Positions 29,228-48,422 of a DNA stretch of 56,012 nucleotides are shown here, one piece after another; positions within the stretch are counted from its first letter, which is position 1, and the number at the start of each line of letters is the position of its first letter. Both the position numbers and the translations under genes were made by a program. This DNA is from Betaproteobacteria bacterium (GTDB lineage Bacteria > Pseudomonadota > Gammaproteobacteria > Burkholderiales > SG8-41), in NCBI GenBank assembly GCA_031399805.1, contig JANNPG010000153.1, positions 1 through 56,012 of the forward strand, in the 5' to 3' direction. The notes beneath the pieces were generated by a model, which saw only the letters and a program-made list of their open reading frames with translations, was not told where the DNA came from and did not search any database.

Positions 29228-30577
29228 ATGCGAACGAAACTGGGCGCTATGCCCGATGTGATGGTTGACAAGCTCGGCAATAGCAACGCAACCGCTTCGC
29301 CGCCCACTAACACCGCGGCGGGCATTCCCAACGACGCCAGTCGCCGGAATTTTCTCCGCCGCAGCAGTACTTTAGCGGGCAGCGCTCTTGCCGCAGGCGC
29401 GGCGGGTGTATCGCTTTCGCATGCGGCGCCGCTGGCGATACCGGACAGCAACAAAGGCTATGGCAAGCCGATTCCTGCGGACGATTACGGCATGCCGTCC
29501 AAGTTTGAATCGAAGGTACGCCGCCGCCGCACCGATGTCTTCGTAAATCGCCAGAATTTCTCGGACTGGAGCATGACGCCGCTGCAACACCAGCACGGTA
29601 TTGTCACGCCGAACGGGCTCATATTCGAGCGCCATCATAACGGCACGCCCGACATCGATCCGTCCACGCACAAGCTGGTGATCCACGGCATGGTGCGCCA
29701 GCCGCTGGAATTCAGCATGGACGACCTGATGCGCTATCCGGCGGTATCCAGGTTTCATTTCATGGAGTGCTCGGGTAACGGACTGGCCGACTGGTTAAAG
29801 AATGCTTCCACCACCGTTCAGCAGACCCATGGACTACTGTCCGGCGGCCAATGGACCGGCATCCCGGTGTCGTGGCTGCTCGATGAAGCCGGCTTGCAGG
29901 CCGGCGCGACGTGGGCGCTATTCGAAGGCGCCGACGGCTCGGGCCATGTGCGCAGCATGCCCATGAAAAAACTTCTGGATGACTGCCTGCTCGTCTATGC
30001 TCTGAACGGGGAAATGTTGCGGCCCGAGAATGGCTATCCGCTGCGCCTGTTCGTGCCTGGCTGGGAAGGTAACGTCAGCGTGAAATGGTTGCGCCGCATC
30101 AAGGTGGGCGACCAGCCGTGGCACGCCCGCAGCGAGACCGCGCGCTATACGGACCCCATGCCGGACGGCAAATGGCGCCAGTTCAGCTTCGAAATGGAGT
30201 GCAAATCGGTGATTACGCGCCCCTCCGGCGGTATGCACATAGCCCGTGGCATGCATGAGATTCAGGGCTTCGCATGGTCGGGCAATGGCAAAATCAAGGC
30301 GGTCGACGTGACCACCGATGGCGGAAAAAACTGGCAGGAGGCGGTGCTCGAAGAACCGGTCATGGACAAGTGCCTGACGCGCTTTCGTTATCGCTGGGAA
30401 TGGCAGGGCGGGCCCGCCACGATTGCCAGCCGCGCGGTGGACAGCACCGGCTATGTTCAACCGAGCGTGCAGGAACTCCAGAAGCCGCGCGCGATTGTCG
30501 GTTTTGTGCAGCACCATAATGGAATTTTCCCGTGGTCGGTCAGTGCATCCGGTGAGGTGAAAAATGCGATTGCTTAA
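29228..30577 (+). CDS. Molybdopterin sulfite dehydrogenase catalytic subunit (SoxC/SorA, sulfite-oxidase family), Tat-exported
   Basis: Twin-arginine signal SRRNFLRRSSTLAGSALAAGAAG. Sulfite-oxidase-family core (FERHHNGTP, FMECSGNG, YALNGEMLRPENGYPLRLFVPGWEGNVSVKWL). GGAGG ribosome-binding site 8 nt before ATG 29228. Confidence 0.85.
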   Translation: MRTKLGAMPDVMVDKLGNSNATASPPTNTAAGIPNDASRRNFLRRSSTLAGSALAAGAAGVSLSHAAPLAIPDSNKGYGKPIPADDYGMPSKFESKVRRRRTDVFVNRQNFSDWSMTPLQHQHGIVTPNGLIFERHHNGTPDIDPSTHKLVIHGMVRQPLEFSMDDLMRYPAVSRFHFMECSGNGLADWLKNASTTVQQTHGLLSGGQWTGIPVSWLLDEAGLQAGATWALFEGADGSGHVRSMPMKKLLDDCLLVYALNGEMLRPENGYPLRLFVPGWEGNVSVKWLRRIKVGDQPWHARSETARYTDPMPDGKWRQFSFEMECKSVITRPSGGMHIARGMHEIQGFAWSGNGKIKAVDVTTDGGKNWQEAVLEEPVMDKCLTRFRYRWEWQGGPATIASRAVDSTGYVQPSVQELQKPRAIVGFVQHHNGIFPWSVSASGEVKNAIA

Positions 30578-31151
30578 GCTTGTTTTGACGGTAACGGGAG
30601 CCCTCGTGGTCGCCGGCTGCGCGACACAGGAAATGTCGCAGCCGGTTGCCAAACCAAACGTCGCATACGGCAAGCCCATAGCCGAGGCGGATATCGCCGC
30701 GTGGAACATCGACATTCGCACGCCTGACGGTAAGGGGCTGCCGGCGGGGCGCGGCACGGTGGCGGAGGGCAAGGCAGTCTACGATGCCAAGTGCGCGGTG
30801 TGCCACGGCGCGGAGGCCAAAGGGGGTCCCGTCTATGGCACGATGGTCGGCGGTATAGGCTCGTTCAAGACCAATGCTCGCGTCCTCACGCCGGGCAGCA
30901 TGTATCCGTATGCGCCCATATTGTTCGACTACATCCGCCGCTCAATGCCGATGGACCGGCCGCAATCGATGACCGTAAACGAGGTTTACGCGGTGTCAGC
31001 GTATATCTTGCAACTTAACGGCCTGATTCCGGACAGTGCAGTAATGGACCAGAATTCTCTGGCCAGGGTGCAGATGCCTAATCGGGATGGTTTTATCGTG
31101 GATGACCGTCCGGACACGAAAGCGGTCCGTTGCATGACAAACTGCAAGTAA
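30564..31151 (+). CDS. Monoheme c-type cytochrome partner (SoxD/SorB-like), predicted lipoprotein
   Basis: Lipobox LVVAGC and a single CAVCH heme site. It overlaps the upstream gene by 14 nt. Confidence 0.8.
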   Translation: MRLLKLVLTVTGALVVAGCATQEMSQPVAKPNVAYGKPIAEADIAAWNIDIRTPDGKGLPAGRGTVAEGKAVYDAKCAVCHGAEAKGGPVYGTMVGGIGSFKTNARVLTPGSMYPYAPILFDYIRRSMPMDRPQSMTVNEVYAVSAYILQLNGLIPDSAVMDQNSLARVQMPNRDGFIVDDRPDTKAVRCMTNCK

Positions 31152-31565
31152 TCATCGATCCTGACCTGCAAGCTGGCGCGACGGTGGCCGATCAATTGCT
31201 GACGAACAGAATACCTGATCGTATGTTCGCCGCGGCCATTCTTGCGGGCGGGATGATGTCGGCATTGCTTGCGGTCGCGGCCGAGCGCAATCCGGCTTTG
31301 GAGGTCGTGCAGGCGCATCCAGGAGGCCATGCTGCGGGGCCACTCGGGTGAGTCACGAAGGGGTACGTTAACGCCTGCGTTAAGGTAAACCGCAATCCTC
31401 CGCCGCCCGATCTCAGGCAATTTTTCGCGGAGCCCGCCGCGTGCTAGACAACCTGCTCGCAGTGCCGCAAATCGCATAACGTTTGTCGTGCATCCGGCGG
31501 ACCGGTGGGCGTCCTTGCCGTGTTCTCAAATATTTTTCGCCATGTTTCTTCGCGGACTAGCCGTA

Positions 31566-31580
31566 GTTTCTTTTCGAAAC
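31566..31580 (+). promoter_or_regulatory. Palindrome GTTTC-N5-GAAAC; candidate enhancer (UAS) for the local sigma-54 activator
   Basis: GTTTCttttcGAAAC is centred about 84 nt upstream of the -24 element. The same palindrome lies about 79 nt upstream of the second sigma-54 promoter, at 45900-45914. Confidence 0.5.
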
Positions 31581-31655
31581 GCGCGGGGTGTTCGTTTTGC
31601 ATTTTGCCGAGACGACAGGGTTGCTGCAGAGCGTTGACACCGTCTATCGCAGGGG

Positions 31656-31671
31656 TGGCATGGAATCTGCA
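31656..31671 (+). promoter_or_regulatory. Sigma-54 (-24/-12) promoter of the Rieske oxygenase / ABC / folD operon
   Basis: TGGCATG-gaat-CTGCA fits TGGCACG-N4-TTGCW. It lies about 50 nt upstream of ATG 31721. Confidence 0.7.
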
Positions 31672-31720
31672 TGAGTTCATCCGGTTTTGACCGGGTGAGT
31701 GACTTACTATTGGAGGCCCT

Positions 31721-32929
31721 ATGTCGAAGAACGCCAGTCAGTGGCATCAGCAGCCCAAGTTTCCCCCCTCGCATTTCGTCGACAGTCGCATTTATACCGA
31801 TGAGCAACTGTTTCACGAGGAGCGCGAAAAGATTTTCAATAAATGCTGGATAATCGCGTGCCACGAATCAGAAGTTCCCGCAGCATTCGATTACCGTACG
31901 TTCTATCACCCCGGCGGCACGCCGCTTATCATGGTGCGCGGCGAAGACATGCGGGTGCGCAGTTTTTATAACGTCTGTCCGCACCGGGGTAACACGCTGC
32001 TCTACGACCCGGTCGGCAACGCCAAGCGCATCACGTGCATCTTTCACGCCTGGTCGTTCGACACCCAGGGCAACTGCACCGATATTTCGCGTGAAGAGCA
32101 GGGTTTCCAGAAGCGGTTTTGCAAAGCGGATACCGGATTGCGCGAAGTGCGCACGGAGGTCGGGTTCGGCGGATTCGTGTGGGTGAATATTGACGACAAT
32201 GCGTGCACGCTCGGCGAATATCTCGGTGACTCGCTTGATATGCTGCATGACAACATGTCGATGCCGCTCGAAGTGTTCCACTATCACAGGGCGATCGTCG
32301 ATACCAATTACAAGCTGTGGCACGATACCAACAGCGAGTTCTACCACGATTACATGCATTACTTTAACCGCGTGACAGGCATGCTCCAGGCGGGCTATTT
32401 CGACCGCAAATACACTGGTTATCCGAACGGACACGCGTCCGTCGGTTCAATGGAGATCAAATACGACGCGTATGAAGGCAGTCAAAAACGCGGCGTTGGC
32501 TGGCCGGGGCTTGCGCCCGGAGGCTGGATTTTGATCGATATTTTTCCGGGTATGACTTATAACCTGCGCACTTCGGTATTGCGCATGGATACATCAATAC
32601 CGCTCGGGCCAAACAAGCTGCTCATAGAATTTCGCGGCTTGGGGTTGAAGAGCGATACGCCGGAGCAGCGCGCGGAGCGCATTCGTGATCACAACATGAT
32701 CTGGGGTCCGTTCGGGCGTAACCTGCACGAAGACCTGCTGGGTGTGCATGGGCAGGGACGCGCGATGCACCCGGGCGGCGAGTTGACCTGGGTGATACAC
32801 GGTCGTGAAGAAAACATGACGATACACGACGAGGGCGGTATGCGGCATTTCTACGCCGAATGGGGTCGTCGCATGGGACGCAAGGCGTACGATCCGTACG
32901 GCGAGCGCAAGATAACCGCAGCAGCCTGA
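31721..32929 (+). CDS. Rieske non-heme-iron oxygenase, large (alpha) subunit
   Basis: Rieske motif CPHRGNTLLYDPVGNAKRITCIFHAW (CXH-X17-CXXH). Mononuclear iron motif WHDTNSEFYHDYMH. Confidence 0.9.
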   Translation: MSKNASQWHQQPKFPPSHFVDSRIYTDEQLFHEEREKIFNKCWIIACHESEVPAAFDYRTFYHPGGTPLIMVRGEDMRVRSFYNVCPHRGNTLLYDPVGNAKRITCIFHAWSFDTQGNCTDISREEQGFQKRFCKADTGLREVRTEVGFGGFVWVNIDDNACTLGEYLGDSLDMLHDNMSMPLEVFHYHRAIVDTNYKLWHDTNSEFYHDYMHYFNRVTGMLQAGYFDRKYTGYPNGHASVGSMEIKYDAYEGSQKRGVGWPGLAPGGWILIDIFPGMTYNLRTSVLRMDTSIPLGPNKLLIEFRGLGLKSDTPEQRAERIRDHNMIWGPFGRNLHEDLLGVHGQGRAMHPGGELTWVIHGREENMTIHDEGGMRHFYAEWGRRMGRKAYDPYGERKITAAA

Positions 32930-32989
32930 ACCGTAATTCCTGTCGCACGCCCGCTCGAATCGAGCGGGCGTGCGCGGAGGAGAGTGCCT

Positions 32990-33454
32990 ATGCAGCCCGA
33001 CAGAACGGCAATTGAAGAACTGGTGTATCGGTCGTGCCTTGCCCTGGACGAGAAAAACTTCAAGGGCTATCTCGACTTGTGCGAGACGGAGTTCCAATAC
33101 CGCATAACGGCGCACAGCCCGGAAATCCGCAAGGATATGACCTGGCTCGAACATGACAAACCAGGCATGCAGCTGCTATTTACCAATCTGCCGCGCCACA
33201 ACAGCGATCATTCGCCGCTGACGCGCCACGCCACCGTTTACACGGTTGAAGTCGATGCGGCACAGCATCAAGCGACCGTGGTGTCGGCGCTGCAGGTGTT
33301 CAAAACCGATCTCGATGGCGGCGCCACTGAGTTGTTTGCGGTCGGACGCTATGTCGATACGGTAACCATCAACGCGGGCGCGCCCAAGCTCCTCAAACGG
33401 GTGGTGAAGCTCGATACCCGGCAGTTCGGAATCGGTTATCACATTCCGTTCTGA
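32990..33454 (+). CDS. Ring-hydroxylating-oxygenase small (beta) subunit (NTF2/SnoaL-like fold)
   Basis: About 155 aa, with an EELVYRSCLALDEKNFKGYLDL N-terminus typical of beta subunits. GGAGGAG ribosome-binding site before ATG 32990. Confidence 0.8.
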   Translation: MQPDRTAIEELVYRSCLALDEKNFKGYLDLCETEFQYRITAHSPEIRKDMTWLEHDKPGMQLLFTNLPRHNSDHSPLTRHATVYTVEVDAAQHQATVVSALQVFKTDLDGGATELFAVGRYVDTVTINAGAPKLLKRVVKLDTRQFGIGYHIPF

Positions 33455-33466
33455 ATCGACCGCCTA

Positions 33467-34507
33467 ATGCGAATTCAGGTCAGCGCACGCAATCGCGCCT
33501 TTCAGTTCGACACCACGCCGGGTGTGAGTGTGCTGTATGCCGGTCTTGCGGCAGGCATACACCTGCCCTATGAGTGCGGCACCGGCACCTGCGGCACCTG
33601 CAAAGCCCGGTTGATCGCGGGTGAAGTGGAGGATGCGTGGCCGCAGGCCGCCGGCCGCAAAAATCTCAAGCAGCCGGGTGAATTGCTGATGTGCCAGTGT
33701 GTGGCCAAGAGCGACTGTACGCTGGAGGTGGCCAGCTTCGTCTACAACATGGATGCGGGCGCTTGCAGGCCGGCGTTTGGGCGCGGCACGGTCACGAACG
33801 CAAAGGCATTGGCGCCCGACGTGACGGGCTTCTCGCTCGAGCTCGACGCGCCCTGCGACTTCGATGCCGGCCAATTCGTGGTGATGCAGGTGCCGGGCGT
33901 CAAGGGGTATCGCGGCTATTCCATGGTGAATTTCGAGCGCGCCGCGCGCCGACTAGATTTCGTGGTCAAGAAAAAACCGGGCGGCGGGGCTTCCGAGTGG
34001 TTATTCGGCGGCGCGATAGAGGGACGCGAGGTCGATTGGTTCGGGCCGCTTGGCGCGGCGACGTTTTATCCCACGCTTGGCAAGAACATTTTGTGCATCG
34101 CCGGCGGCAGCGGCATCGCGGGCATGCTGTCGATTTTGTCGCGGGCGCGTCAGGAACATTATTTCGACCAGTACAGCGGCCACGTGTTTTTTGGCGTGCG
34201 CACCTATGCTGATGCGTTTTATCTTGACGAATTGGCTCAACTCGCAAGCCAGTTTCCGGACAACCTGCGGGCCACCGTCGCATTCTCGGATGAAGAAGTG
34301 CCGCCGGAGGCGCGGGCTGCGCACCCCGCGCTTACCTTCGACAAGGGGCTGGTACACGAAGTCGCGGCGAAACACATGCACGGCAAGTACCAAAACCTGC
34401 GCGCCTATCTGGCAGGGCCGCCCCCCGCGGTCGATGGCGCCATTCGCATGTTGTTGCTGCAGGCCAAGCTTACCGCGGATAATATCCGCTACGACAAGTT
34501 TAGTTGA
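33467..34507 (+). CDS. Oxygenase reductase: plant-type [2Fe-2S] ferredoxin domain plus FAD/NAD(P)H ferredoxin-reductase domain
   Basis: CGTGTCGTCKARL...C cluster motif, RGYSMVN flavin motif, and CIAGGSGIAGM NAD motif. Confidence 0.88.
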   Translation: MRIQVSARNRAFQFDTTPGVSVLYAGLAAGIHLPYECGTGTCGTCKARLIAGEVEDAWPQAAGRKNLKQPGELLMCQCVAKSDCTLEVASFVYNMDAGACRPAFGRGTVTNAKALAPDVTGFSLELDAPCDFDAGQFVVMQVPGVKGYRGYSMVNFERAARRLDFVVKKKPGGGASEWLFGGAIEGREVDWFGPLGAATFYPTLGKNILCIAGGSGIAGMLSILSRARQEHYFDQYSGHVFFGVRTYADAFYLDELAQLASQFPDNLRATVAFSDEEVPPEARAAHPALTFDKGLVHEVAAKHMHGKYQNLRAYLAGPPPAVDGAIRMLLLQAKLTADNIRYDKFS

Positions 34508-35241
34508 TGAGCATGAGCAAAACATTCGTCTGTCCGCGCAGCCACGTTCCGGCCAACGGTATGGTCGAGTGCGCGGTGGAAGGCGGGTTGAAGCTGCTGG
34601 TGGCGAACACCGGCAGCGAATATTTCGCCTACCAGGCCATGTGCCCGCATCAGGATGTGGCGCTGTGCGAAGGCCTGTATGACGGGGCGGTGCTGACTTG
34701 CCATCAGCACCTGTGGCAGTGGGACATACGCACGGGGGCAGCGATCGGGCTTGCGGAAGCGCCGCTGGAAAGCTTTCCGGTGCAGGTCGAAGGGGACTCC
34801 ATCTACGTCGTCGCGCAAAGTGCGCTCAGCGCGGCGGAACTGTTCGTCGGCATTTCAGGTCAGACGCTGAAGGGCTTAACGGACTTGGCGAAAAAAGAGG
34901 AATTCGACGCCGGCCGCGCACTTTATGACGTCGGCGATCCGGCCGACGATTTCTTCATTCTCGAATCGGGGCGGGTCGAATTCCTGATCGGCCGTGATGA
35001 GCGGGTAAGTCCGGCGGGTTTCATGCTGCGCAAGGGCGAAGTGTTCGGCTGGGCGGCGCTCCTGGACAACCAGCCGCGGCGGATTGCACGCGCGACCTGT
35101 CTGGAGCGCTCCCAGGTGTTGCACATCAACGGCAAGGAGGCACTGCGGGTGCTGGAAGGCGATCCAGCGTCGGGATACGTCGTCATGCGCCGCTTGTCGT
35201 CGCTAATCGCGCGCTATCTGGTATCGTCTGGATCAAAGTAG
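34507..35241 (+). CDS. Fusion protein: Rieske-type [2Fe-2S] ferredoxin (N-terminal) plus an atypical cyclic-nucleotide-binding-like (CNB) domain (C-terminal)
   Basis: Rieske motif CPHQDVALCEGLYDGAVLTCHQH (CXH-X16-CXXH). CNB beta-roll DDFFILESGRVEFLIG...GEVFGWAALLDNQPRRIARATC. TGATG overlap with the reductase stop codon. Confidence 0.85.
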   Translation: MSMSKTFVCPRSHVPANGMVECAVEGGLKLLVANTGSEYFAYQAMCPHQDVALCEGLYDGAVLTCHQHLWQWDIRTGAAIGLAEAPLESFPVQVEGDSIYVVAQSALSAAELFVGISGQTLKGLTDLAKKEEFDAGRALYDVGDPADDFFILESGRVEFLIGRDERVSPAGFMLRKGEVFGWAALLDNQPRRIARATCLERSQVLHINGKEALRVLEGDPASGYVVMRRLSSLIARYLVSSGSK

Positions 35242-35333
35242 GGCACGGGCCGAGTCAGGCAGAGTAACAGCAGCAACCGGGATTTCGAATATTTACCGGC
35301 GGGGAAAAGTTGTTAATCACACAGGAGGATGTC

Positions 35334-36458
35334 ATGCACGCAATAAAACGCTTCATGCAGGTGTTCGCGGTAATTTCCATGCTTGCAGTTATGACGGGGC
35401 AGGGCTGGGCGTCCGATATCGATTTTGGAAAGCCGGGTCAGCCTGTCGAACTGGTAATCGGCTATCAGCCGTATTACACCGAGTCGTGGTCCGGCGTAGT
35501 GATGCGCGGCAAGAAATTTTACGAGAAATATCTGCCTAAAGGCTCGAAAGTCGAATTTCAGGTGGGCCTGCAGGGCGCGATTATCGTCAACAACATGCTC
35601 GCGGGAAAACAGCATATCGGCTACATGGGCGATATGCCGGCTATAGTCTCGACCACGAAGACCGAAACCGCTGACATTCGAATTGTCGCCACCCTGGGCC
35701 TCGGTTTCGACCAGTGCAATATTTTCCTTGCACGCAATGACGCGCCCAAGTTCGCCAATGCCAAGGAAGCGCTGAAGTGGCTGGACGGCAAGCAGGTTGC
35801 GGTTCCGAAAGGCAGCTGCACCGACCGGTTTGCGCAGGCGACGTTCAAGAAGGAAGGCGTGCAGCCCAAAGACTACCTCAATCAGAACATTGAGGTTATC
35901 ACCAGTAATTTCCGTGCGAGCAAGATCGACGCGGCGGTAATCTGGGAACCCACCGCTTCGCGTCTGGTACAGGAAGGACTGGCGCGTCGCATCGCATCCG
36001 GCGCCAGCGTCGATGAAGGCGACGGCGGCTTTCTTGCGATGCGCGCAGATTTGATCAAGCAACGGCCGGACGTGGTCAAGGCCTGGCTGAATGCCGAACT
36101 CGACGCGCAGTTATTCCTCGCCGACGAAAAGAATTCGACCGAGGTAATCAAGATGGCGAAGGAGCAGACCACCGGTTTCTCCGAACGCGCGCTGTGGTAT
36201 TCACTCTATGGCACCTATAGCGCTGAAACCGGGGGCACCAAGACACGCATTAATCTGCACTACACGATTACGCCCCAGGCGCGTGATCTGATCGCGAAAG
36301 CCACCACTTTCCTGCACTCGATCAAAAGCATCAACGTTGCAAAGTTGCGCCCGGAGGCGGTGATGGCGGAGTTTACCGAACAAGTGCTGAAGGAACGTAA
36401 CCTCAAGGCACCGATCGGCGATGTACTCGCATTGCCTGACGCACAGGCACCCAAGTAA
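35334..36458 (+). CDS. ABC transporter periplasmic substrate-binding protein (NitT/TauT, NMT1-like family)
   Basis: Signal peptide ...MTGQGWA. The family call rests on overall resemblance to sulfonate/nitrate/taurine binding proteins and on the adjacent SsuC/TauC-type permeases. GGAGG ribosome-binding site. Confidence 0.8.
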   Translation: MHAIKRFMQVFAVISMLAVMTGQGWASDIDFGKPGQPVELVIGYQPYYTESWSGVVMRGKKFYEKYLPKGSKVEFQVGLQGAIIVNNMLAGKQHIGYMGDMPAIVSTTKTETADIRIVATLGLGFDQCNIFLARNDAPKFANAKEALKWLDGKQVAVPKGSCTDRFAQATFKKEGVQPKDYLNQNIEVITSNFRASKIDAAVIWEPTASRLVQEGLARRIASGASVDEGDGGFLAMRADLIKQRPDVVKAWLNAELDAQLFLADEKNSTEVIKMAKEQTTGFSERALWYSLYGTYSAETGGTKTRINLHYTITPQARDLIAKATTFLHSIKSINVAKLRPEAVMAEFTEQVLKERNLKAPIGDVLALPDAQAPK

Positions 36459-36464
36459 CGGCCC

Positions 36465-39633: not shown

Positions 39634-39649
39634 TGCGCCGGCGGCGGAT

Positions 39650-41634: not shown

Positions 41635-41649
41635 TTCCAGTCATTGAAT

Positions 41650-42507
41650 ATGGCCGCGACCCTGCTTGACGGAGCGGCCATAGCCCGGCAGGTTTACTCG
41701 GGGCTCAGGCAACGCATCGGATCGCTACGCGCCGGTGGTGTCCGGCCCGGACTGGCTGCACTGCTGATCGGAGACAATCCGGCGTCACGGATATACGTCA
41801 GGAACAAAGTTCACGCTTGCAGCGAGGTTGGCGTCTACTCGGAAGTGCACCCACTCGCGGCAGATTGCACGGAGGAAGAGGTGCTTGCCACCGTGCGGCG
41901 CCTGAATGCAGATTCCGCAATTCACGGCATACTCGTACAGCTCCCGCTGCCCGCGCAGTTGCGCCCGGAGCGTGTACTGCAAGCCATTGCGCCCGCCAAG
42001 GATGTCGATGGCTTCAACTGGCTGAACCTTGGCGCGATGATTGCCGGGCATCCCCTGCTTGCGCCGTGCACGCCGCTGGGCGTGATGGCCATGCTCGATC
42101 ACGCCGGTGTTGCGATCGAAGGCCGCAGCGCAGTCGTAGTCGGGCGCAGCGCCATCGTCGGCAAGCCGCTTGCAATGATGCTGATCGCGCGTGGCGCAAC
42201 CGTAAGCGTGTGCCATTCGAAAACGGTCGACCTGCGGCAGTACACCCTGATGGCGGATATTCTGGTTATCGCGGTCGGCAGGCCCGGTCTGGTCGACGGC
42301 AGTATGATCAAACCGGGCGCAGTGGTAATCGATGTAGGTATCAACCGCATGTCCAGCGGCAAGCTGGCGGGTGATGTCGATTTTGCGTCCGGCAGCCTGA
42401 TTGCATCGAAAATTACGCCGGTGCCCGGCGGCGTTGGACCAATGACGGTTGCGATGCTGATTGCAAACACCGTGACCGCCGCCGAGCGCAGCGTCGGCGG
42501 CGGCTGA
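41650..42507 (+). CDS. folD: Bifunctional methylene-THF dehydrogenase/methenyl-THF cyclohydrolase, copy 2 (tandem paralog)
   Basis: Same motif set (PASRIYVRNKVHAC, HGILVQLPLP, DVDGFN, TPVPGGVGPMTV), but clearly diverged from copy 1. Confidence 0.92.
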   Translation: MAATLLDGAAIARQVYSGLRQRIGSLRAGGVRPGLAALLIGDNPASRIYVRNKVHACSEVGVYSEVHPLAADCTEEEVLATVRRLNADSAIHGILVQLPLPAQLRPERVLQAIAPAKDVDGFNWLNLGAMIAGHPLLAPCTPLGVMAMLDHAGVAIEGRSAVVVGRSAIVGKPLAMMLIARGATVSVCHSKTVDLRQYTLMADILVIAVGRPGLVDGSMIKPGAVVIDVGINRMSSGKLAGDVDFASGSLIASKITPVPGGVGPMTVAMLIANTVTAAERSVGGG

Positions 42508-42512
42508 AATAA

Positions 42513-43571
42513 TCAGCGCGCGTGGCGCGGCAGAAACCTGCCCGGGTCGTAAAATGGCAGCCGCGCGACATGCGCGCGCGTGCGGTCTGCAAGCATGACC
42601 GCGGATCCGGGGTATGCGTCGTCGGCATTGACGAAACCGATGCCAAGCTTGCGCCCGAACACGGGCGACCAGCAAACGCTGGTCAGCATTGCGTTGCCGG
42701 GCGCCAGGTGTTCCGGCAAGCGTGTTGCCAGGACGGAATGATTCTGCGGCAGCAATCCTGTCAAACGGCGCTGCAGCGGCCGCCAGCGGAGACTACGCAA
42801 CGCCCGTGCGCCGCGAAAATCATGGCCATGAAAATCGACCATCCGCGCCAGACCCAGCTCCAGCGGCGTTACCGGCGCGGCGAGTTCACGCATGAATAGC
42901 CAGTGGCCAGCCTCTATGCGCAGTGAATCGACCGCGTCAAAACCGCATTCCAGCAATCCGCTCTCTGCGCCGGCGTCGCACAGTGCCTGCCACAGTGCTT
43001 CGGCCGCGGCATCCGCAAGCACGAATTCATAACCCATTTCGCCGCTATAGCCGATGCGCGCAAGCCAGCAGTCGCGGTCCGCGAATTTAAGCCGCTCGAA
43101 GCCGTAGTAGGGCAGCGCGACCTGCTGCGGTGCAAAGCAGCGCTCGATAATGCGCCGGCTCGCCGGGCCTTGCAGCGCAATGACTGCATGCTGCCGCGAG
43201 ATGTCGGTCACGGTCACATTAAACTCGCGGGCGCTTTGCGCAACAGGCTCGAAATCGGCGCGCCTGCCGACGAACAGCCAGTAGTGCTCGCTGTTCAGAC
43301 GCCACACTGTCGCGTCATTCAGCACCGTGCCGTCGTCGCGCAGCAGCAACGTATAGGCGATACGCCCGGCCGGCAAGCCGTCGAGCGCGCGCGTTTGCAG
43401 TGCCTGCAGGAAAGCAGCACTCGCGGGCCCCGTAATTTCGGCGCAGCACATGAATGAAAAATCGAACAGGCCGGCCGACCGGCGCGTGGCCAGATGTTCG
43501 TGCTGCGGGTCGCTGAAGTAACGCGGCGTCGGGATGCCCGGCGCTACCGTCAGGGTTGCGGGGCAGCGCAT
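42513..43571 (-). CDS. GcvT-family folate-binding aminomethyltransferase-like protein
   Basis: RRSAGLFDFSFMCCAEITGPASAAFLQALQTRALDGLPAGRIAYTLLLRDDGTVLNDATVWRL resembles the GcvT N-terminal fold. I chose start ATG 43571 because it lies downstream of the TauE stop. Confidence 0.8.
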   Translation of the reverse strand: MRCPATLTVAPGIPTPRYFSDPQHEHLATRRSAGLFDFSFMCCAEITGPASAAFLQALQTRALDGLPAGRIAYTLLLRDDGTVLNDATVWRLNSEHYWLFVGRRADFEPVAQSAREFNVTVTDISRQHAVIALQGPASRRIIERCFAPQQVALPYYGFERLKFADRDCWLARIGYSGEMGYEFVLADAAAEALWQALCDAGAESGLLECGFDAVDSLRIEAGHWLFMRELAAPVTPLELGLARMVDFHGHDFRGARALRSLRWRPLQRRLTGLLPQNHSVLATRLPEHLAPGNAMLTSVCWSPVFGRKLGIGFVNADDAYPGSAVMLADRTRAHVARLPFYDPGRFLPRHAR

Positions 43572-43597
43572 GCTTAGAAACCTGGCCAGCGCCGTTG

Positions 43598-44335
43598 TCA
43601 CTTGAACCATCCGAGTTCGTGCCCTATCAGCGCGAATCCAACCGCAATGCATAGCACGGCGACGAATTTGCGCAACAGATCGGCGTTCACCGCATGCACG
43701 ATGCGCGCGCCAAGCACGACGCCCAGAATTTCAAGCAGGGTGACCGTGGCGGCAACGCTGAAATCGATCGTGCCATACTTGAGGTTGCCGAACGTGCCGG
43801 ATACCGCAGCGACGATCTGGATGACCTGGCTCGTACCGATCGAGGTCAGAGCCGGAAATCCGCACAGCACCATCAGCGGTACGGACAGCGCAGGGCCGCC
43901 GACACCCGTCAGTCCGGACCCGAACCCGGCAATTGCGCCCAGGGCGAGTAACAGCATGCTTTGCGCGTGCCTGCGCCCGGCAAACGCGGGTTGTGGTATG
44001 CCGTGCCACTTTGCCATGGTATAGACGCCGGCGAAAATAATGACGGCTGCGAGCAGGATTGCAAGGGCGCCGGGCCCAGTCAGCGAATTGACCCACGCGC
44101 CGATAAACGCAAAAAAAACGGCGCCCAGCAAAACCGGCTGCGTAACGGACCAGTCGATGCTGCCGCGCCGCTGGAACATGAGGGTGCCGGTGACACCGGT
44201 AAATGCGAATGTAAAAAGCGCGGTCGCCATCGCGACGTGGATTGACAGGCCGGCAAATGCGGTTAATGCCGGAATCAGCAGGATGCCACCAATGCCGACC
44301 GCGCCAATCAGCGTGCCGACGCCAAAGGCGCTCAC
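43598..44335 (-). CDS. TauE/SafE-family sulfite/organosulfonate exporter
   Basis: Eight predicted transmembrane segments with duplicated G-rich motifs (GAVGIGGILLIPAL and GLTGVGGPALSVPL). The start is uncertain: GTG 44335, or a CTG 24 nt upstream. Confidence 0.8.
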   Translation of the reverse strand: MSAFGVGTLIGAVGIGGILLIPALTAFAGLSIHVAMATALFTFAFTGVTGTLMFQRRGSIDWSVTQPVLLGAVFFAFIGAWVNSLTGPGALAILLAAVIIFAGVYTMAKWHGIPQPAFAGRRHAQSMLLLALGAIAGFGSGLTGVGGPALSVPLMVLCGFPALTSIGTSQVIQIVAAVSGTFGNLKYGTIDFSVAATVTLLEILGVVLGARIVHAVNADLLRKFVAVLCIAVGFALIGHELGWFK

Positions 44336-44380: not shown

Positions 44381-44400
44381 GGGGCATGCTGGCATGCCCC
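44381..44400. promoter_or_regulatory. Perfect 8-bp GC-rich hairpin inside the operon, between the CNB and TauE genes
   Basis: GGGGCATG-ctgg-CATGCCCC. Confidence 0.35.
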
Positions 44401-44431: not shown

Positions 44432-44896
44432 TCAGCCCGACGCAAACGCGGTCAGGTTGCCGGTGATCAGAATATTGAGCTGTTTCATCAAGCGAAAGCC
44501 GAGACTGTGATCGGCTTCCATCAACAGCAACAGCTGATCACCGTTGATGGCGAATACCGAACAAGGCGTAAGGCAGACCGCGGACGCAATGCGCGTGGGC
44601 GCCTGCTCGACGAGCGCGGCCCAGCCGAAAACCTCGCCGCATTGCAGTATCTGGCCGGCCGCGGTGCGTCGGCTGCCGAGCCCGATGCTGAACCGCACCA
44701 TGCCGTCGACCAGAACGTAGCAGTCGACCGCCACATCGCCGATATTGTAAATCTGGCTGTCCTGGCGATAACTGTCGATGCGACCCAGCGCCGCGATGCG
44801 TTCATGCTGCGCCGGCGCAAGCCCGGCGAAAAAACCGGCGCCGCCCACAATGTCGGCGTGTGTCGGGACGATGCCCGCGGCGGCCGGTTGCGTCAC
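44432..44896 (-). CDS. Stand-alone atypical CNB-domain protein (154 aa, no DNA-binding domain)
   Basis: VDCYVLVDGMVRFSIG...GEVFGWAALVEQAPTRIASAVC. GTGA overlap with the upstream PanB-like gene. Confidence 0.8.
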   Translation of the reverse strand: MTQPAAAGIVPTHADIVGGAGFFAGLAPAQHERIAALGRIDSYRQDSQIYNIGDVAVDCYVLVDGMVRFSIGLGSRRTAAGQILQCGEVFGWAALVEQAPTRIASAVCLTPCSVFAINGDQLLLLMEADHSLGFRLMKQLNILITGNLTAFASG

Positions 44897-45762
44897 TTCT
44901 TCCAGCCCACCTTGTCCTTGAATTTCTTGAGTTCGTCTTCTTTCATGTACACCGTGTGTTCCTTGCCTGGATAGATGCGCTTCCTGACTTCATCGCGATA
45001 GTCGGTGAGACCTTTCTCGATGATAGGCACGAGGTCGCAATAGATCTTGGAATGGCGCGGTGTGTGTTTCTCGTAGAGATGGAAGAGATCGGAGCCGATG
45101 ATATGCACACCGTCCGAGGTATTGCCCGAGCCCAGGCTTACCACCGGTACCGGCAGAGTCTCAGCAAGAAACTGCGACACTTCGGAGGTCACCACCTCGG
45201 TCATGATGGAGAAACATCCGGCATCGACAAACGCCCATGCGTCATCCACCAGTTCTTTGGCGCGGTCGGCGGTCTTGCCCTGCGCTGCGAAGCCGCCGAG
45301 TTGCGGAATGCGCATCGGGCAGATGCCGATGTGCCCCTGCACGGGAATACCTGCCTTGACGATGGCTTCGATGTATTTCGCGTGATGTTGGTTGCCCTCG
45401 CACTTCATGACTTCGGCGCCGGCCTGCGACACGTACTTGGCCGCATTGTCGACGGATTGCTGCGCTGAGAGGTGAAAGCTCATGTAGGGCATATCAACCA
45501 TGCGCAGTCCGTACTGCGACCCGCGCTTGACCGCCTGCGCCATGAACAGCACCTCTTCAAACGAGACGGAAGTGGTCGATTCGTGACCGAACAACACCAT
45601 ACCGCCGGTGTCGGACACGCACAGGATATCGATGCCCACGCGGTCGGCGACAATCGCGGTTTCGTAGTCATAGACGGCGAGTTGCACGATGGGTTCGCCT
45701 TTTTTCTTCTTTTCCATCAGCATCGGGATAGTTACCTTTTTACGCGCTGCTTGTTCGGCCAT
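44893..45762 (-). CDS. PanB-family (3-methyl-2-oxobutanoate hydroxymethyltransferase-like) methylene-THF-dependent enzyme
   Basis: KVTIPMLMEKKKKGEPIVQLAVYDYETAIVADRVGIDILCVSDTGGMVLFGHESTT and GHIGICPM are typical of the PanB TIM barrel. AAGGAGG ribosome-binding site before ATG 45762. Confidence 0.8.
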   Translation of the reverse strand: MAEQAARKKVTIPMLMEKKKKGEPIVQLAVYDYETAIVADRVGIDILCVSDTGGMVLFGHESTTSVSFEEVLFMAQAVKRGSQYGLRMVDMPYMSFHLSAQQSVDNAAKYVSQAGAEVMKCEGNQHHAKYIEAIVKAGIPVQGHIGICPMRIPQLGGFAAQGKTADRAKELVDDAWAFVDAGCFSIMTEVVTSEVSQFLAETLPVPVVSLGSGNTSDGVHIIGSDLFHLYEKHTPRHSKIYCDLVPIIEKGLTDYRDEVRKRIYPGKEHTVYMKEDELKKFKDKVGWKK

Positions 45763-45814
45763 GGCCGCCTCCTTGGTGGTTAACTCTTGAGATCGCAAAG
45801 TTTAAAAAACGTAA

Positions 45815-45829
45815 GCAAGCCTTATGCCA
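45815..45829 (-). promoter_or_regulatory. Sigma-54 (-24/-12) promoter of the PanB-like / CNB / TauE / GcvT-like operon
   Basis: The minus strand reads TGGCATA-aggc-TTGCT. It lies about 53 nt upstream of ATG 45762. Confidence 0.7.
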
Positions 45830-45899: not shown

Positions 45900-45914
45900 G
45901 TTTCCAAATGAAAC
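45900..45914 (-). promoter_or_regulatory. Palindrome GTTTC-N5-GAAAC; candidate UAS, second copy
   Basis: GTTTCcaaatGAAAC is centred about 79 nt upstream of the -24 element. An extra GTTTC/GAAAC half-site lies at 45922-45926. Confidence 0.5.
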
Positions 45915-45963: not shown

Positions 45964-47397
45964 TCACGCGCGCGCCCCCGACCCGCCCGCGCGGCCCGAC
46001 CGTCCGCCAGACCGAAAGAGCCCCCAGCGATTGCGCCTTACCCATAGCGCCTTGCGGCCGATGCCGAGCATCGTCGCCAGTTCCTGTTCGCTGTAGCGAT
46101 CCTGATAGCGTTTGACGAATTCGGCGATGTAGTCCTCGATAGACAGCGCGGTGGCGAACGTGCCGTCCGTGCCGGCGGGTTGCAGATCAGACGTAGGTTC
46201 GTGCGTCGAAAGGTCTGAAAAATCGCGCGCCGACAGCGTCGCCCCGTCGGCCAGTATGACGGCGCGCTCGATCACGTTTTCGAGTTCGCGCACGTTGCCC
46301 GGCCAGCGGTATCGAACGAGAATATTTTTCAGATCATCGCTGATGCCGGCAATGCGTTTGCCGAGGCGGCGGCTATGTTCCGCGATGAAATGATCGGTCA
46401 GTATTTCGATATCCTTGCCGCGTTCGCGCAGAGGCGGCACGTGTATATTGATGACATTAAGCCGATAAAAAAGGTCGGCGCGGAATGCGCCTTGCTCGGT
46501 GGCGCTTTTCAGATCGCGGTTGCTGGCGGCAAGAATCCGCACATCGGTGTGAAAAATGCGGGTAGAACCCAGCGGCCGCACCTGTTTTTCCTGGATCACG
46601 CGCAGCAGTTTCACCTGTAACTGCGGTGCCAGTTCGGATATTTCGTCCAGAAACAGCGTGCCGCCGTGCGCTTCACGAATTAGTCCTTCCGTGGCGGCAA
46701 CCGCGCCGGTATACGCGCCCCTGGTGTGGCCGAACAATTCCGACTCGAGCAGTTCGGCAGGAATGGCGCCGCAGTTGATCGGCACGAACGAGCGCTCGGC
46801 GCGCGGACTCGCGTTATGTATGGCCTGCGCGACGAGCTCCTTGCCGGTCCCGCTTTCGCCCTGGATCAGCACGTTGGCATCGGTAACGGCCACCTTGTCG
46901 ATCAACTCGAATACGCGCTTGATGCCCGCGCTGTGGCCGATAATGCGCATGCTGGCGTGGGCGTTTTTCAGGTTGCGCTTGAGCAGTGCGTTCTCGCGCT
47001 GCATCCGGCGCACGCTGAGCGCGCGCTCGATCGCGAACAGCAGCGCGTCGTTGTGAAAAGGCTTGATGACATAGTCGACAGCGCCGTTTTTGAGTGCTTC
47101 GATCGCGGTATCGAGCGACGAATAACTCGTCATCAGGATGATCGGCAGGGCGGGCTGCGCCTTATGCAATGTCCGGATTACCGACATGCCGTCGCCAGCG
47201 GGCAGACGCAGGTCGGTGATGACGAGGTCGTACTCGCTGGCGGCCACTTTGTCCAGGCCCTCCTCGGCGCGCGTCGCAAACTCGACTCCGTAGCCTCGCG
47301 CCGGCAACAGCATCTCGATACTCGTGCTGACGCCGGGATCGTCCTCGATAATCAGTATGCGTTCGTTACGCGCGAATTGTGCGACGCTCGCGGTCAT
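45964..47397 (-). CDS. Sigma-54-dependent response regulator (REC, AAA+ and Fis-type HTH domains; NtrC family)
   Basis: REC domain (ILIIEDD...DLVITDLRLP). AAA+ domain (GESGTGKE, ESELFGHTRGAYTGA, a GAFTGA variant). C-terminal HTH. ATGA overlap with the kinase gene. Confidence 0.92.
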   Translation of the reverse strand: MTASVAQFARNERILIIEDDPGVSTSIEMLLPARGYGVEFATRAEEGLDKVAASEYDLVITDLRLPAGDGMSVIRTLHKAQPALPIILMTSYSSLDTAIEALKNGAVDYVIKPFHNDALLFAIERALSVRRMQRENALLKRNLKNAHASMRIIGHSAGIKRVFELIDKVAVTDANVLIQGESGTGKELVAQAIHNASPRAERSFVPINCGAIPAELLESELFGHTRGAYTGAVAATEGLIREAHGGTLFLDEISELAPQLQVKLLRVIQEKQVRPLGSTRIFHTDVRILAASNRDLKSATEQGAFRADLFYRLNVINIHVPPLRERGKDIEILTDHFIAEHSRRLGKRIAGISDDLKNILVRYRWPGNVRELENVIERAVILADGATLSARDFSDLSTHEPTSDLQPAGTDGTFATALSIEDYIAEFVKRYQDRYSEQELATMLGIGRKALWVRRNRWGLFRSGGRSGRAGGSGARA

Positions 47398-48422
47398 CGG
47401 GATACCGCCGGCAGCCGGATGTAGAAGCATGCGCCGCCCTGCGCATCGTTGGCCGCGCGCATGCTGCCGCCGTGCGAGAGCACGATTTCGCTGCTGATCG
47501 CGAGGCCGAGCCCGGTGCCGTACCCGGCGGGCTTGGTCGTAAAAAACGGCTCGAACAAGCGCGGCAGATCGCGCTCGGCAATGCCGGGTCCGGTATCACG
47601 AATCGCAATTTCCACGCTGTTCGCATCGGGTCGGGTATCGCGGATAAAGAGGCGCCCGCGGCCGCGCATGGCCTGCGCGGCGTTCGTGAATACGTTGCAG
47701 AAAACCTGCTGGAGCTGGCTGGGATCGCCGTGGATGACGATCGCATGGTCGAGCGTGCATGCGACGCTGACCTCGTGCATGAGGCTATCCTGGTGCAATA
47801 GCGACAAGGCATCGTTCACCGTGGCGAACAAATTGAGCGACGCGCGGGCATCGTTGCTCGCGCGCGAGAAGTCGTTGAGCTTGCGCGAAATATTCAGTAC
47901 GCGCTGCACGTTGGCCGCGATGTTGGCGAGACCTTTGTCCAGCAGCGCGGGCGGGCACTCGGGGGTGGCGCGCAGCAATTGAACGGTCGAACTGATCGCC
48001 GTCAGCGGATTCGCCACTTCATGGCACACACCCGCGACCATGAAGCCGAGGGATGCGAGGCGCGCGACCTGGGTATTGCCGAGACCGCCGGTGGTTTCCG
48101 GCTGCCGGATAACGAACAGGCAGGCGCCCAGCGGCAGGCGATGCAGGGTGATGTGCTCAGTTACGGCGGTACCGTGCTCGTCGCGAGTGACGACCGCCGC
48201 CTGGGGCGTCAGCCAGGGTACTTCTCCGTGCAGCGCCGCGTAATAGTACGGAAACATGCGGGCGAGCGGGACGCTGGCGGGAGCGTTCGCCGTCACGCCC
48301 GCGCGGCGCATCTCCTGATTGATAAACGTCACTGAGCCCTGCTCGTCCACCATCATTACCGGCCACGGCAGCGCGTCGAAAAACGCGGTCAGAATTTCAT
48401 GTATATCGGAGAACGCATTCAT
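47394..48422 (-). CDS. Soluble PAS-domain sensor histidine kinase
   Basis: N-terminal PAS-like region (PWPVMMVDEQGSVTFIN), H-box CHEVANPL, and HATPase N/G boxes (FTNAAQAM, DTGPGI, GTGLGLAIS). I saw no transmembrane segment. Confidence 0.88.
   Translation of the reverse strand: MNAFSDIHEILTAFFDALPWPVMMVDEQGSVTFINQEMRRAGVTANAPASVPLARMFPYYYAALHGEVPWLTPQAAVVTRDEHGTAVTEHITLHRLPLGACLFVIRQPETTGGLGNTQVARLASLGFMVAGVCHEVANPLTAISSTVQLLRATPECPPALLDKGLANIAANVQRVLNISRKLNDFSRASNDARASLNLFATVNDALSLLHQDSLMHEVSVACTLDHAIVIHGDPSQLQQVFCNVFTNAAQAMRGRGRLFIRDTRPDANSVEIAIRDTGPGIAERDLPRLFEPFFTTKPAGYGTGLGLAISSEIVLSHGGSMRAANDAQGGACFYIRLPAVSR

Follow-up and report, generated by a model that had tools for sequence, protein, structure and literature searches.

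We find that a 19-kb island at about 29035–48479 of contig JANNPG010000153.1, from a Betaproteobacteria bacterium (assembly GCA_031399805.1), encodes a four-component Rieske oxygenase, an importer, folate enzymes and sulfite-handling proteins that are orthologous to those of the msm loci for methanesulfonate (MSA) catabolism. The window, that is the whole stretch of DNA that was analysed, is the entire 56,012-bp contig. Genes were assigned from a listing of open reading frames (ORFs) together with Pfam and NCBIfam profile scans of the window proteins, and every gene named in an initial annotation of the same DNA was recovered in the position and order given there. The island has the housekeeping genes pyrG-kdsA-eno-ftsB on one side and an MFS transporter gene on the other, and contains the following features:

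29228–30577 (+): SoxC-type molybdenum sulfite dehydrogenase, exported by the twin-arginine (Tat) pathway (TIGR04555 602 bits, cutoff 420; Oxidored_molyb and Mo-co_dimer domains)
30564–31151 (+): SoxD-like monohaem cytochrome c (Cytochrom_C; CxxCH at residue 77; lipoprotein-like signal)
31152–31720: regulatory gap of 569 bp
31566–31580: palindrome GTTTC-N5-GAAAC, candidate activator site, 76–90 bp upstream of the -24 element
31656–31671 (+): -24/-12 element of sigma-54 type (TGGCATGGAATCTGCA), predicted promoter of the oxygenase/transporter operon, 50 bp ahead of the alpha gene
31721–32929 (+): MsmA-like Rieske oxygenase alpha subunit, short-spacer type (CPH-X17-CIFH; Rieske and Ring_hydroxyl_A domains)
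32984–33454 (+): MsmB-like oxygenase beta subunit (SnoaL_4 and Ring_hydroxyl_B domains)
33467–34507 (+): MsmD-like NADH:ferredoxin reductase with plant-type 2Fe-2S, FAD and NAD domains (Fer2, FAD_binding_6, NAD_binding_1)
34504–35241 (+; start codon approximate): MsmC-like Rieske ferredoxin (Rieske 7–91) with a C-terminal atypical domain resembling those that bind cyclic nucleotide monophosphates (cNMP_binding 132–218)
35310–36458 (+): MsmE-like periplasmic substrate-binding protein (NMT1_2; Sec-type signal peptide read from the sequence)
36545–37894 (+): MsmF-like permease with an N-terminal atypical cNMP-binding-like domain (cNMP_binding 43–131, BPD_transp_1 267–436)
37858–38754 (+): MsmG-like ATPase of the ATP-binding cassette (ABC) type (ABC_tran)
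38758–39633 (+): MsmH-like second permease (BPD_transp_1)
39650–40516 (+): second ABC ATPase, the fifth transporter gene (ABC_tran)
40750–41634 (+): FolD 1, methylene-tetrahydrofolate (THF) dehydrogenase/cyclohydrolase (THF_DHG_CYH, THF_DHG_CYH_C; NF010786 426 bits, cutoff 421)
41644–42507 (+): FolD 2 (folD-type domains; 58% identical to FolD 1 and 56% to the FolD of the Stellaceae locus L084)
42513–43652 (-; true start probably 40–80 nt downstream): GcvT-like folate-binding protein of the aminomethyltransferase family (GCV_T, GCV_T_C)
43598–44335 (-): TauE/SafE-family sulfite exporter (PF01925 126 bits)
44432–44896 (-): stand-alone atypical cNMP-binding-like protein of 154 amino acids (PF00027)
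44893–45762 (-): PanB-like hydroxymethyltransferase of an msm-associated subfamily (Pantoate_transf 265 bits)
45814–45829 (-): -24/-12 element of sigma-54 type (TGGCATAAGGCTTGCT), predicted promoter of the PanB-like operon, 52 bp ahead of the PanB-like ATG
45900–45914: second copy of the palindrome GTTTC-N5-GAAAC, 71–85 bp upstream of the -24 element
45964–47430 (-): NtrC-family response regulator and sigma-54 activator (Response_reg, Sigma54_activat 232 bits, AAA_lid_14)
47394–48479 (-; probable start 48422): cytoplasmic histidine kinase (HisKA, HATPase_c; weak PAS-like N-terminus)

All components of a methanesulfonate monooxygenase (MSAMO), namely a Rieske alpha subunit, a beta subunit, a Rieske ferredoxin and a Fer2-FAD-NAD reductase, are encoded side by side at 31721–35241, with their Cys/His motifs readable from the sequence, and are followed at 35310–40516 by a five-gene ABC import set of the NitT/TauT family. 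All nine core proteins have one-to-one orthologues in msm loci of the long-spacer type, in which the two halves of the Rieske motif of the alpha subunit lie 26 residues apart. One such locus, L081, has the classical divergent msmEFGH/msmABCD layout, and identities to its products are 58% for alpha, 45% for beta, 47% for the reductase, 54% for the substrate-binding protein, 61% for each permease (for the MsmF-like permease in its membrane part), 70% for the MsmG-like ATPase and 55% for the second ATPase. The alpha subunit is also 58% identical to that of a second long-spacer locus, L086; the ferredoxin part is 41–45% identical to MsmC of L081 and L086, and identities to long-spacer MsmB and MsmD are 39–45% and 47–49%. 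The adjoining substrate-binding protein, permease, ATPase and permease genes stand in the order of L081, and the fifth transporter gene, for an ATPase, is likewise present in L081 and after msmH in Filomicrobium Y (PMC4433239, Table 1). The substrate-binding protein scores below the cutoff of the SsuA family model, and the ligand of the importer is predicted to be a sulfonate.

The same arrangement is widespread. A survey of one genome per species returned 270 related loci, mostly from Burkholderiales; the best 80 of these 270 are nearly all from Betaproteobacteria and include Methyloversatilis universalis FAM5, Methylibium, Thiobacillus thioparus DSM 505, Glaciimonas, Polaromonas and Polynucleobacter. 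In these 80 loci the alpha subunit is 75–95% identical to that of the window. The gene order alpha, beta, reductase, ferredoxin, substrate-binding protein, permease, ATPase, permease, ATPase recurs in about 80 species-level genomes, which is more than chance would give, and the synteny also holds in about 40 metagenome contigs. The clade is seen in many contigs from soil, rhizosphere and groundwater, and the closest relatives of the window are metagenome-assembled genomes of Burkholderiales/Betaproteobacteria. Among the 120 closest homologues, alpha identities are 71–85%, and many of these proteins have been named 'methanesulfonate monooxygenase large subunit' by the Joint Genome Institute.

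More distant comparisons place the alpha subunit in the same family. In an exhaustive search, the nearest outside 50%-identity cluster representative was an MsmA with a CSH-X26-CMYH motif (49% identity, 464 bits), all others being at most 47% identical, and identities to the 26-spacer proteins of the MsmA family overall are 49–59%. A search of the PDB with the alpha subunit returned no MsmA structure, the best matches being terephthalate dioxygenase (5e-31) and carnitine monooxygenase, CntA (1e-25), and the NCBIfam oxygenase models all scored far below their cutoffs (GbcA 94 of 670 bits, HcaE 118 of 830, AndAc 114 of 750). A vectorised Kimura-distance neighbour-joining tree with 100 bootstraps recovered the whole Msm family with 100% support and the window clade with 98%. 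A superclade of the window clade, a group of 57%-identical paralogues, a Rokuibacteriota-type group and the 26-spacer enzyme of Burkholderia sp. RPE67 received 92%, and this superclade was sister (84%) to one of the two long-spacer groups, the one with the Methylobacterium nodulans and Kiloniellales proteins. A phylogeny of the alpha subunit had been proposed as a check on the initial annotation, and by this tree the protein is placed inside the MsmA family at 100% bootstrap and not with the GbcA/CntA-type or aromatic oxygenases.

The difference in Rieske spacing that had been pointed out for this protein is well defined, with X17 in all 120 of the closest window homologues and X26 in 112 of 118 relatives of P0122, the nearest outside representative, and amounts to a clean 9-residue loop on either side of which the sequences align readily. 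The long-spacer proteins form no clade that excludes the window protein. Because the 26-spacer RPE67 enzyme falls within the short-spacer superclade, spacer length is homoplastic, having changed more than once, and a criterion built on it is phylogenetically incoherent; the comparative evidence for this is new here. As the PDB lacks an MsmA structure, we compared conservation clade by clade, at positions where it is 95% or more in the short-spacer set (n=120) as well as in the long-spacer set (n=112). Of 96 such positions 94 carry the identical residue in both sets, and the two exceptions, Tyr95/Arg and Ile107/Met, flank the loop. In the catalytic domain there is not a single fixed difference between the sets, and the shared blocks include the EFYHDY(M/L)H iron motif, FPG.TYNLR, RGLGLK.DTPE.R, IWGPFGRNLHEDLL and REEN.TIHDE.

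Two further kinds of alpha-like protein were met in these searches. Directly beside the cluster, some genomes carry a second Rieske alpha/beta pair (4871–6085 in L008, 7584–8798 on the minus strand in L057, and also in L012, L078 and L156); the second alpha is 57% identical to that of the window and has the X17 spacer, and the pair comes without a reductase or ferredoxin of its own, so that it may act on a further substrate while drawing on the same electron carriers. Two full-length MsmA-like cluster representatives, P0125 and P0130, lack the Rieske Cys/His ligands, and P0125 groups with the window clade in the tree. Ligand-less 'MsmA' proteins have already been reported for SAR116 and its phage (PMC4433239).

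Set beside the MsmABCD/MsmEFGH systems of Methylosulfonomonas methylovora M2, Marinosulfonomonas methylotropha TR3 and 'Candidatus Filomicrobium marinum' Y, the window shares the four-component Rieske system, the adjoining NitT/TauT importer and the E-F-G-H-ATPase order, and its alpha subunit, 49–58% identical to 26-spacer proteins in this comparison, has a nearly identical set of conserved residues. It differs in the order of the oxygenase genes, as had been noticed from the outset, this being A-B-reductase-ferredoxin instead of A-B-ferredoxin-reductase. The former order is common to the core, RPE67 and P0384-type (Rokuibacteriota-type) lineages, whereas A-B-C-D order is found in the long-spacer loci L081–L086, except for the rearranged L084, and in that of M. 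nodulans (L168). Moreover, the oxygenase and transporter genes of the window form one co-directional operon and not divergent operons, cNMP-like domains are fused to its ferredoxin and permease, and an NtrC-type/sigma-54 system stands where long-spacer loci have LysR-type regulators.

Among the other differences from msm loci claimed in the initial annotation, the cNMP-domain fusions hold as a clade-specific trait, whereas the stand-alone cNMP protein of the same subtype is found in long-spacer alphaproteobacterial loci also. The built-in folate enzymes are not a difference, for such enzymes sit beside bona fide and long-spacer msm genes too, as do TauE, SoxCD and the PanB-like protein. The 20-kb msm segment of Filomicrobium Y, a proven MSA degrader, contains TauE, a GcvT-family protein, a '3-methyl-2-oxobutanoate hydroxymethyltransferase', SoxC, SoxD and a fifth ABC ATPase (PMC4433239); it has SoxCD, TauE, GcvT and a PanB-like protein as the window does, but neither FolD nor the cNMP protein. 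In the long-spacer Stellaceae locus L084 we find FolD, the PanB-like protein, TauE and a 157-residue cNMP protein beside the reductase, and in the long-spacer Kiloniellales locus L086 msmABCD is followed by a 148-residue cNMP protein, SoxC, SoxD, the PanB-like protein, the GcvT-like protein, TauE and a LysR-type gene. The suggestion that the island represents a distinct, uncharacterised variant was right as to distinctness. The short-spacer variant is not new, however, having already been labelled MsmA by annotation pipelines and discussed as unproven: Henriques and De Marco (2015) proposed the 26-residue spacer as an MSAMO signature and regarded the label 'MsmA' on the short-spacer proteins of Methylibium, Methyloversatilis, Ralstonia and Thiobacillus as an automatic annotation without proof (PMC4433239).

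The clusters of Methyloversatilis universalis FAM5, Methylibium spp. and Thiobacillus thioparus DSM 505 (L026, L036 and L054) belong to the same clade as the window, with an alpha subunit 76–80% identical, the same nine-gene order including the cNMP domains on ferredoxin and first permease, and NtrC, cNMP and TauE genes nearby. In the window and its closest relatives ftsB immediately precedes the island, soxCD comes before the oxygenase and transporter genes, and a folD pair after them; Methyloversatilis and Methylibium differ in having the regulator, cNMP and TauE genes upstream of the oxygenase. The nearest sister of the window clade is found on plasmid p3 of Burkholderia sp. RPE67 (L167, 12001–17394 of the locus), with alpha and beta 59% and 51% identical, the A-B-reductase-ferredoxin order, a GAF/sigma-54 regulator and a TauE-like protein. 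It differs in its 26-residue spacer, in having an MFS and not an ABC transporter, in lacking cNMP domains and folate genes, and in having an aldehyde dehydrogenase and PrpE next door; it may act on a longer-chain alkanesulfonate. As RPE67 lacks the C1 genes and has instead these neighbours, gene context tracks the likely product.

The first two genes of the island can be assigned more closely than before. The Mo sulfite dehydrogenase with a cytochrome c partner stands as described, and its type is SoxCD: the SoxC model is passed, a twin-arginine motif (SRRNFLRRS) is present and a c-type cytochrome gene adjoins. A SorAB-type sulfite dehydrogenase was considered and rejected, the SorA and SorT models scoring far below their cutoffs. 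SoxC and SoxD are 51% and 48% identical to their counterparts in L086, and SoxCD adjoins the cluster in the window and in several related loci. The tauE gene is conserved both in the PanB-like operon and in long-spacer loci. The 96 bp separating the cNMP-only gene from tauE contain a GC-rich hairpin at 44381–44400 on the minus strand (GGGGCATGC-CAGC-ATGCCCC), which may act as an attenuator inside the operon or affect the stability of the mRNA; across the window, terminator-like sites are no commoner than in shuffled sequence.

The folate and C1 genes lie on both strands. Downstream of the transporter genes, folD is found in many related loci as in the window. The GcvT-like product falls short of the GcvT models (TIGR00528 166 bits, cutoff 236; NF001567 202 bits, cutoff 300), no gcvH or gcvP lies within the island, and the protein is best described as a GcvT-like folate-binding protein only. 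Its relatives in the PDB include the THF domains of trimethylamine N-oxide (TMAO) demethylase and dimethylglycine oxidase, and because GcvT-like domains load C1 units onto THF in those enzymes, a catalytic role for the GcvT-like protein is plausible.

The PanB-like protein passes one PanB model narrowly (TIGR00222 219 bits, cutoff 207.6) and fails another (NF001452 245 bits, cutoff 272). It is homologous over its full length to PanB of E. coli (1M3U) and M. tuberculosis (1OY0), with phmmer E-values of 3e-43 to 3e-44, and retains Asp45, Asp84, Lys112, Glu114, His136 and Glu181, which we take to be the catalytic residues in E. coli numbering. Several motifs that are invariant elsewhere are altered (GDS to SDT, GLTPQ to GICPM and DGQ to DGV), and unlike PanB the protein is encoded in an operon with TauE and the GcvT-like protein, behind a predicted sigma-54 promoter. 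Its identity to the copies in alphaproteobacterial msm loci is 70–71%, the highest of any protein of the locus, and a plasmid search returned only ordinary PanB genes, at most 37% identical. These observations point to a distinct subfamily, which can, on present comparisons, be recognised for the first time as a conserved msm accessory component. A metagenome search with the PanB-like protein yielded 41 contigs of at least 6 kb, in nearly all of which TauE comes next (with the cNMP gene between where it is present), and in all but four of which the GcvT-like gene follows TauE. In these contigs the kinase-regulator pair often stands ahead of the PanB-like operon, and the msm transporter/oxygenase operon converges on it.

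Both operons carry the marks of sigma-54 control. The regulator has a receiver domain, a Walker A motif, an ELFGH-x5-GAYTGA loop and a C-terminal helix-turn-helix, and is conserved beside the cluster in related loci; the kinase that had been reported next to it is confirmed, and the PAS domain ascribed to it is sub-threshold (PAS_4 E=0.002, 18.8 bits, cutoff 23.1). A strict search of the window for TGGCAC-N5-TTGC gave zero matches. With two positions relaxed (TGGCAY-N5-YTGCW) there are two matches in the 56 kb, at the two operon fronts, against an expectation of 0.33, and two matches were reached in one of 100 shuffles. In 60 of 78 related loci a comparable -24/-12 element is found 60–125 bp ahead of the alpha start codon, compared with about 4% of random 200-nt windows, and the element of the PanB-like operon, whose ATG is preceded by a good AAGGAGG ribosome-binding site, is conserved in loci that keep the kinase-regulator pair upstream. 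The exact palindrome occurs only twice in the 56 kb, both times at an operon front, and a second GTTTCCAAA direct repeat is found 22 bp from the copy at 45900–45914. Upstream of the alpha gene the exact palindrome is present in 55 of 78 related loci, with invariant half-sites and a free centre, and in many cases two copies stand in tandem, 23 bp apart; upstream of the PanB-like gene it is present in 30 of 70 metagenome loci, wherever the regulator adjoins.

Domains, two promoters, two palindromes and conservation across loci all point to an NtrC-type sigma-54 regulon, in which binding of the regulator to the palindromes is predicted from sequence. To this extent the initial annotation, which described the whole island as sigma-54-controlled, is supported for the oxygenase and PanB-like operons; no -24/-12 element was found upstream of soxCD or folD, and the claim does not extend to these genes. 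We consider the conserved promoters and palindromes in front of both operons, and the putative circuit that they form, to be new here. An Rfam scan of the whole window returned zero RNA families and so no riboswitch in the 569-bp gap or before folD, and scans of the window for sigma-70 promoters and terminators gave counts no different from those in shuffled sequence. Streamlined loci of the Polynucleobacter type (L032, L044, L048 and L049) are without the cNMP fusions, the NtrC-type regulator and the -24/-12 element; they keep alpha (77–78% identical), beta, the reductase, a plain ferredoxin-sized ORF of 100 residues and the transporter, together with a diverged PanB-like-TauE-GcvT set at 31–44% identity.

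Three atypical cNMP-like domains are encoded in the window, one in the ferredoxin, one in the first permease and one as a protein of its own. They are 37–42% identical to one another and 35–45% to the free alphaproteobacterial proteins, and the ferredoxin fusion is found in 63 of 72 and the permease fusion in 47 of 56 related loci. Like CRP- and PKA-type domains they have the Pfam cNMP_binding fold and keep the phosphate-binding Arg; unlike these, they lack a DNA-binding domain and occur on a Rieske ferredoxin, on an ABC permease or as a free-standing protein. We took the phosphate-binding cassette Gly-Glu ... Arg-Ser/Thr/Ala-Ala as the mark of a functional cNMP sensor. Every copy examined has Trp in place of the canonical Glu, and Ile or Leu in place of the Ser or Thr that canonically follows the retained Arg, as confirmed by a HMMER alignment to the Thermus CRP family regulator 4EV0. 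In the stand-alone protein the Arg-Ser/Thr pair is Arg-Ile, and the same signature is seen in L084, L086 and throughout the clade. A large-database search with the stand-alone protein gave only close stand-alone homologues, and with that no view of other architectures. By these comparisons the atypical cNMP protein would be a conserved msm accessory component, which also appears not to have been recognised before.

We regard it as likely that the island is a betaproteobacterial short-spacer system for the catabolism of MSA, or of a very close C1 sulfonate, for energy and C1 units. The msm-like C1-organosulfonate system of the initial annotation is backed by homology, phylogeny and synteny, and its substrate is, as before, assigned by analogy. 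The substrate would be imported by the MsmE-like binding protein and a heterodimeric ABC importer of two permeases and two ATPases. Electrons from NADH would pass through the reductase and the Rieske ferredoxin to the alpha/beta oxygenase, which, if its chemistry is that of the characterised MSAMO (PMC4433239), would hydroxylate the methyl carbon, and the resulting hydroxymethanesulfonate would give formaldehyde and sulfite. The C1 unit would be loaded onto THF, a step probably catalysed by the GcvT-like and PanB-like proteins, and the two FolD enzymes would oxidise the THF-bound unit to formyl-THF. From their family functions, TauE would export the sulfite, and the Tat-exported SoxCD would convert it to sulfate in the periplasm and deliver the electrons to cytochrome c. 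The histidine kinase and the NtrC-type activator are predicted to bind the palindromes and to switch on the two sigma-54 promoters, and, more speculatively, the three paralogous cNMP-like domains probably sense one small ligand and tune the flux after translation.

Enzyme-catalysed capture of the C1 unit onto THF is plausible on general grounds. The spontaneous reaction of formaldehyde with THF is too slow for growth on C1 compounds, supporting at most 0.0012 per hour in vivo, and PanB variants, which catalyse the condensation of formaldehyde with 2-oxoisovalerate, could hand the unit on to THF (PMC7073904). Formaldehyde and bisulfite form a fairly stable adduct in water, hydroxymethanesulfonate, and because of this stability an enzyme that resolves it would be useful. 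We tentatively propose, as an idea that we ourselves find rather doubtful, that the PanB-like and GcvT-like proteins are a dedicated catalyst for C1 transfer to THF and, at the same time, that the three cNMP-like domains bind an anion of the pathway. Under this proposal the two enzymes may cleave hydroxymethanesulfonate directly to methylene-THF and sulfite or, alternatively, a 2-oxoacid may serve as a catalytic carrier of formaldehyde, and either route may be a folate-linked counterpart of the formaldehyde-activating enzyme. The cNMP-like domains may bind methanesulfonate, hydroxymethanesulfonate or sulfite in place of a cyclic nucleotide, and so gate import, electron supply and export.

Several observations weigh against assigning MSA as the substrate. 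The proposed MSAMO signature CXH-X26-CXXH is absent, the window having CPH-X17-CIFH, and our tree was built without the biochemically characterised M. methylovora sequence, for which the long-spacer proteins stand in. In the literature we found no short-spacer member shown to oxidise or grow on MSA, and nothing newer than 2015–2016; Henriques and De Marco state explicitly that none of the short-spacer clade has been proven on MSA (PMC4433239). The 'methanesulfonate utilisation' cluster of Methyloversatilis FAM5 is silent on methanol and methylamine (PMC5023235), which is uninformative for MSA. Gene presence is also no guarantee of growth, as Variovorax WS11, with a long-spacer msmABCD, does not grow on MSA. 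No formyl-THF hydrolase or ligase and no formate dehydrogenase is encoded within the island. Finally, the second, 57%-identical alpha/beta pair of some genomes appears to reflect substrate diversification within the family.

Another reading is that the same machinery acts on a different small aliphatic sulfonate (for example ethane- or propanesulfonate, isethionate or a C1 compound with a substituent), the missing 9-residue loop marking a functional shift. We consider this unlikely, even though the X26 signature is absent, the use of MSA is a prediction for the short-spacer clade, and the family has diversified, with paralogous alpha/beta pairs in L008 and L057 and RPE67 beside an aldehyde dehydrogenase and PrpE. 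The characterised MSAMO, moreover, accepts several short alkanesulfonates. Several points speak against a shift of this kind: the window clade and long-spacer MsmA show no fixed difference in the catalytic domain, the binding protein shares 54% identity with its long-spacer counterpart, and spacer length is homoplastic, the nearest sister of the window clade being a 26-spacer enzyme. The C1-specific folate genes (two FolD, GcvT-like and PanB-like) are tightly linked and co-regulated, as in proven or long-spacer msm loci, whereas products with two or three carbons would call for enzymes of aldehyde or acyl-CoA metabolism.

Alternatively, the island could serve sulfur scavenging, with sulfite from sulfonates assimilated under sulfate limitation and no pathway for carbon and energy. 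The transporter does belong to the NitT/TauT (Ssu/Tau-like) family that is used for sulfur scavenging, and MSA is a sulfur source for many bacteria (PMC4433239). Export by TauE followed by periplasmic oxidation by SoxCD, however, would be disposal and energy conservation and not assimilation, and the dedicated C1-folate enzymes imply a high carbon flux. Known scavenging of MSA uses the FMNH2-dependent SsuD/MsuD enzymes. These are absent from the island, control is of the NtrC-type/sigma-54 two-component kind, and no gene for a LysR-type (CysB/Cbl-like) regulator was seen in the island, all of which makes scavenging very improbable. That the alpha subunit belongs to an N- or O-demethylase of the GbcA/CntA/Stc2 type or to an aromatic or aromatic-sulfonate dioxygenase, with the sulfite genes as an unrelated neighbouring module, we reject as scarcely credible: GcvT-like proteins do often accompany demethylases, and the NCBIfam and PDB matches are to HcaE, AndAc and GbcA (for the Rieske half of the protein), terephthalate dioxygenase and carnitine monooxygenase, but these matches are generic, far below family cutoffs and mostly confined to the N-terminal part, the alpha subunit is 49–59% identical to the MsmA family and monophyletic with it at 100% bootstrap, which already contradicts this reading, there are no genes for ring cleavage or amine handling, and TauE lies inside a co-regulated operon with SoxCD adjoining in the window and several related loci.

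The surroundings of the island are those of a stable chromosomal locus. Upstream lie glnD, rpsB, cdsA, dxr, bamA, lpxB, rnhB, pyrG, kdsA, eno and ftsB, and downstream the MFS transporter, a large flavoprotein, an aminotransferase and TctC. A recent mobile insertion, against which the initial annotation had also argued, is rejected, as no integrase or transposase is present in the ORF and domain listing of the window, GC content is even along it and the ftsB junction is kept in relatives. On plasmid pMNOD01 of Methylobacterium nodulans ORS 2060 (L168), a long-spacer msmABCD-TauE-Mo oxidoreductase-cytochrome c cluster lies beside formate dehydrogenase genes and is flanked by the insertion sequence (IS) elements IS630 and IS66; from this setting the msm module would be mobile in other lineages, although the window copy is chromosomal and stable.

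Outside the island, a divergent pair at 20959–21951 (-) and 21937–23274 (+) passes the curated models for selenoneine biosynthesis, namely those for the SenB selenosugar synthase (TIGR04348 413 bits, cutoff 300) and the SenA selenoneine synthase (NF041186 484 bits, cutoff 420), and no selD or senC was seen adjoining the pair. Between a TrmH-family methyltransferase gene and pyrG, an ORF of 191 residues (24098–24673, +) matches residues 543–621 only of phosphoenolpyruvate (PEP) synthase and resembles a gene remnant. The flavoprotein downstream of the island (49982–53497, +; 1171 residues) resembles 'glutamate synthase beta / 2-polyprenylphenol hydroxylase' (NF005128 820 bits, short of the 1072-bit cutoff), and its neighbours are an AptA-type omega-aminotransferase (53507–54838, -) and a TctC receptor (54879–55922, -).

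MSA is a major atmospheric oxidation product of dimethylsulfide, and rain carries it to soils and fresh waters (PMC4433239). The island will not surprise a specialist; what it does is to make two questions testable, namely whether the short-spacer enzymes are true MSAMOs and whether formaldehyde is captured enzymatically by folate. The locus also offers two mechanistic leads, in a putative enzymatic entry of formaldehyde into the folate pool and in a putative non-canonical cNMP-type sensor on a ferredoxin and an ABC permease. The short-spacer clade, common as it is, is left out by surveys in which the 26-residue spacer serves as the msmA marker. If the clade does oxidise MSA, then the turnover of MSA in terrestrial and freshwater environments would have been under-counted, and the spacer criterion should be dropped.

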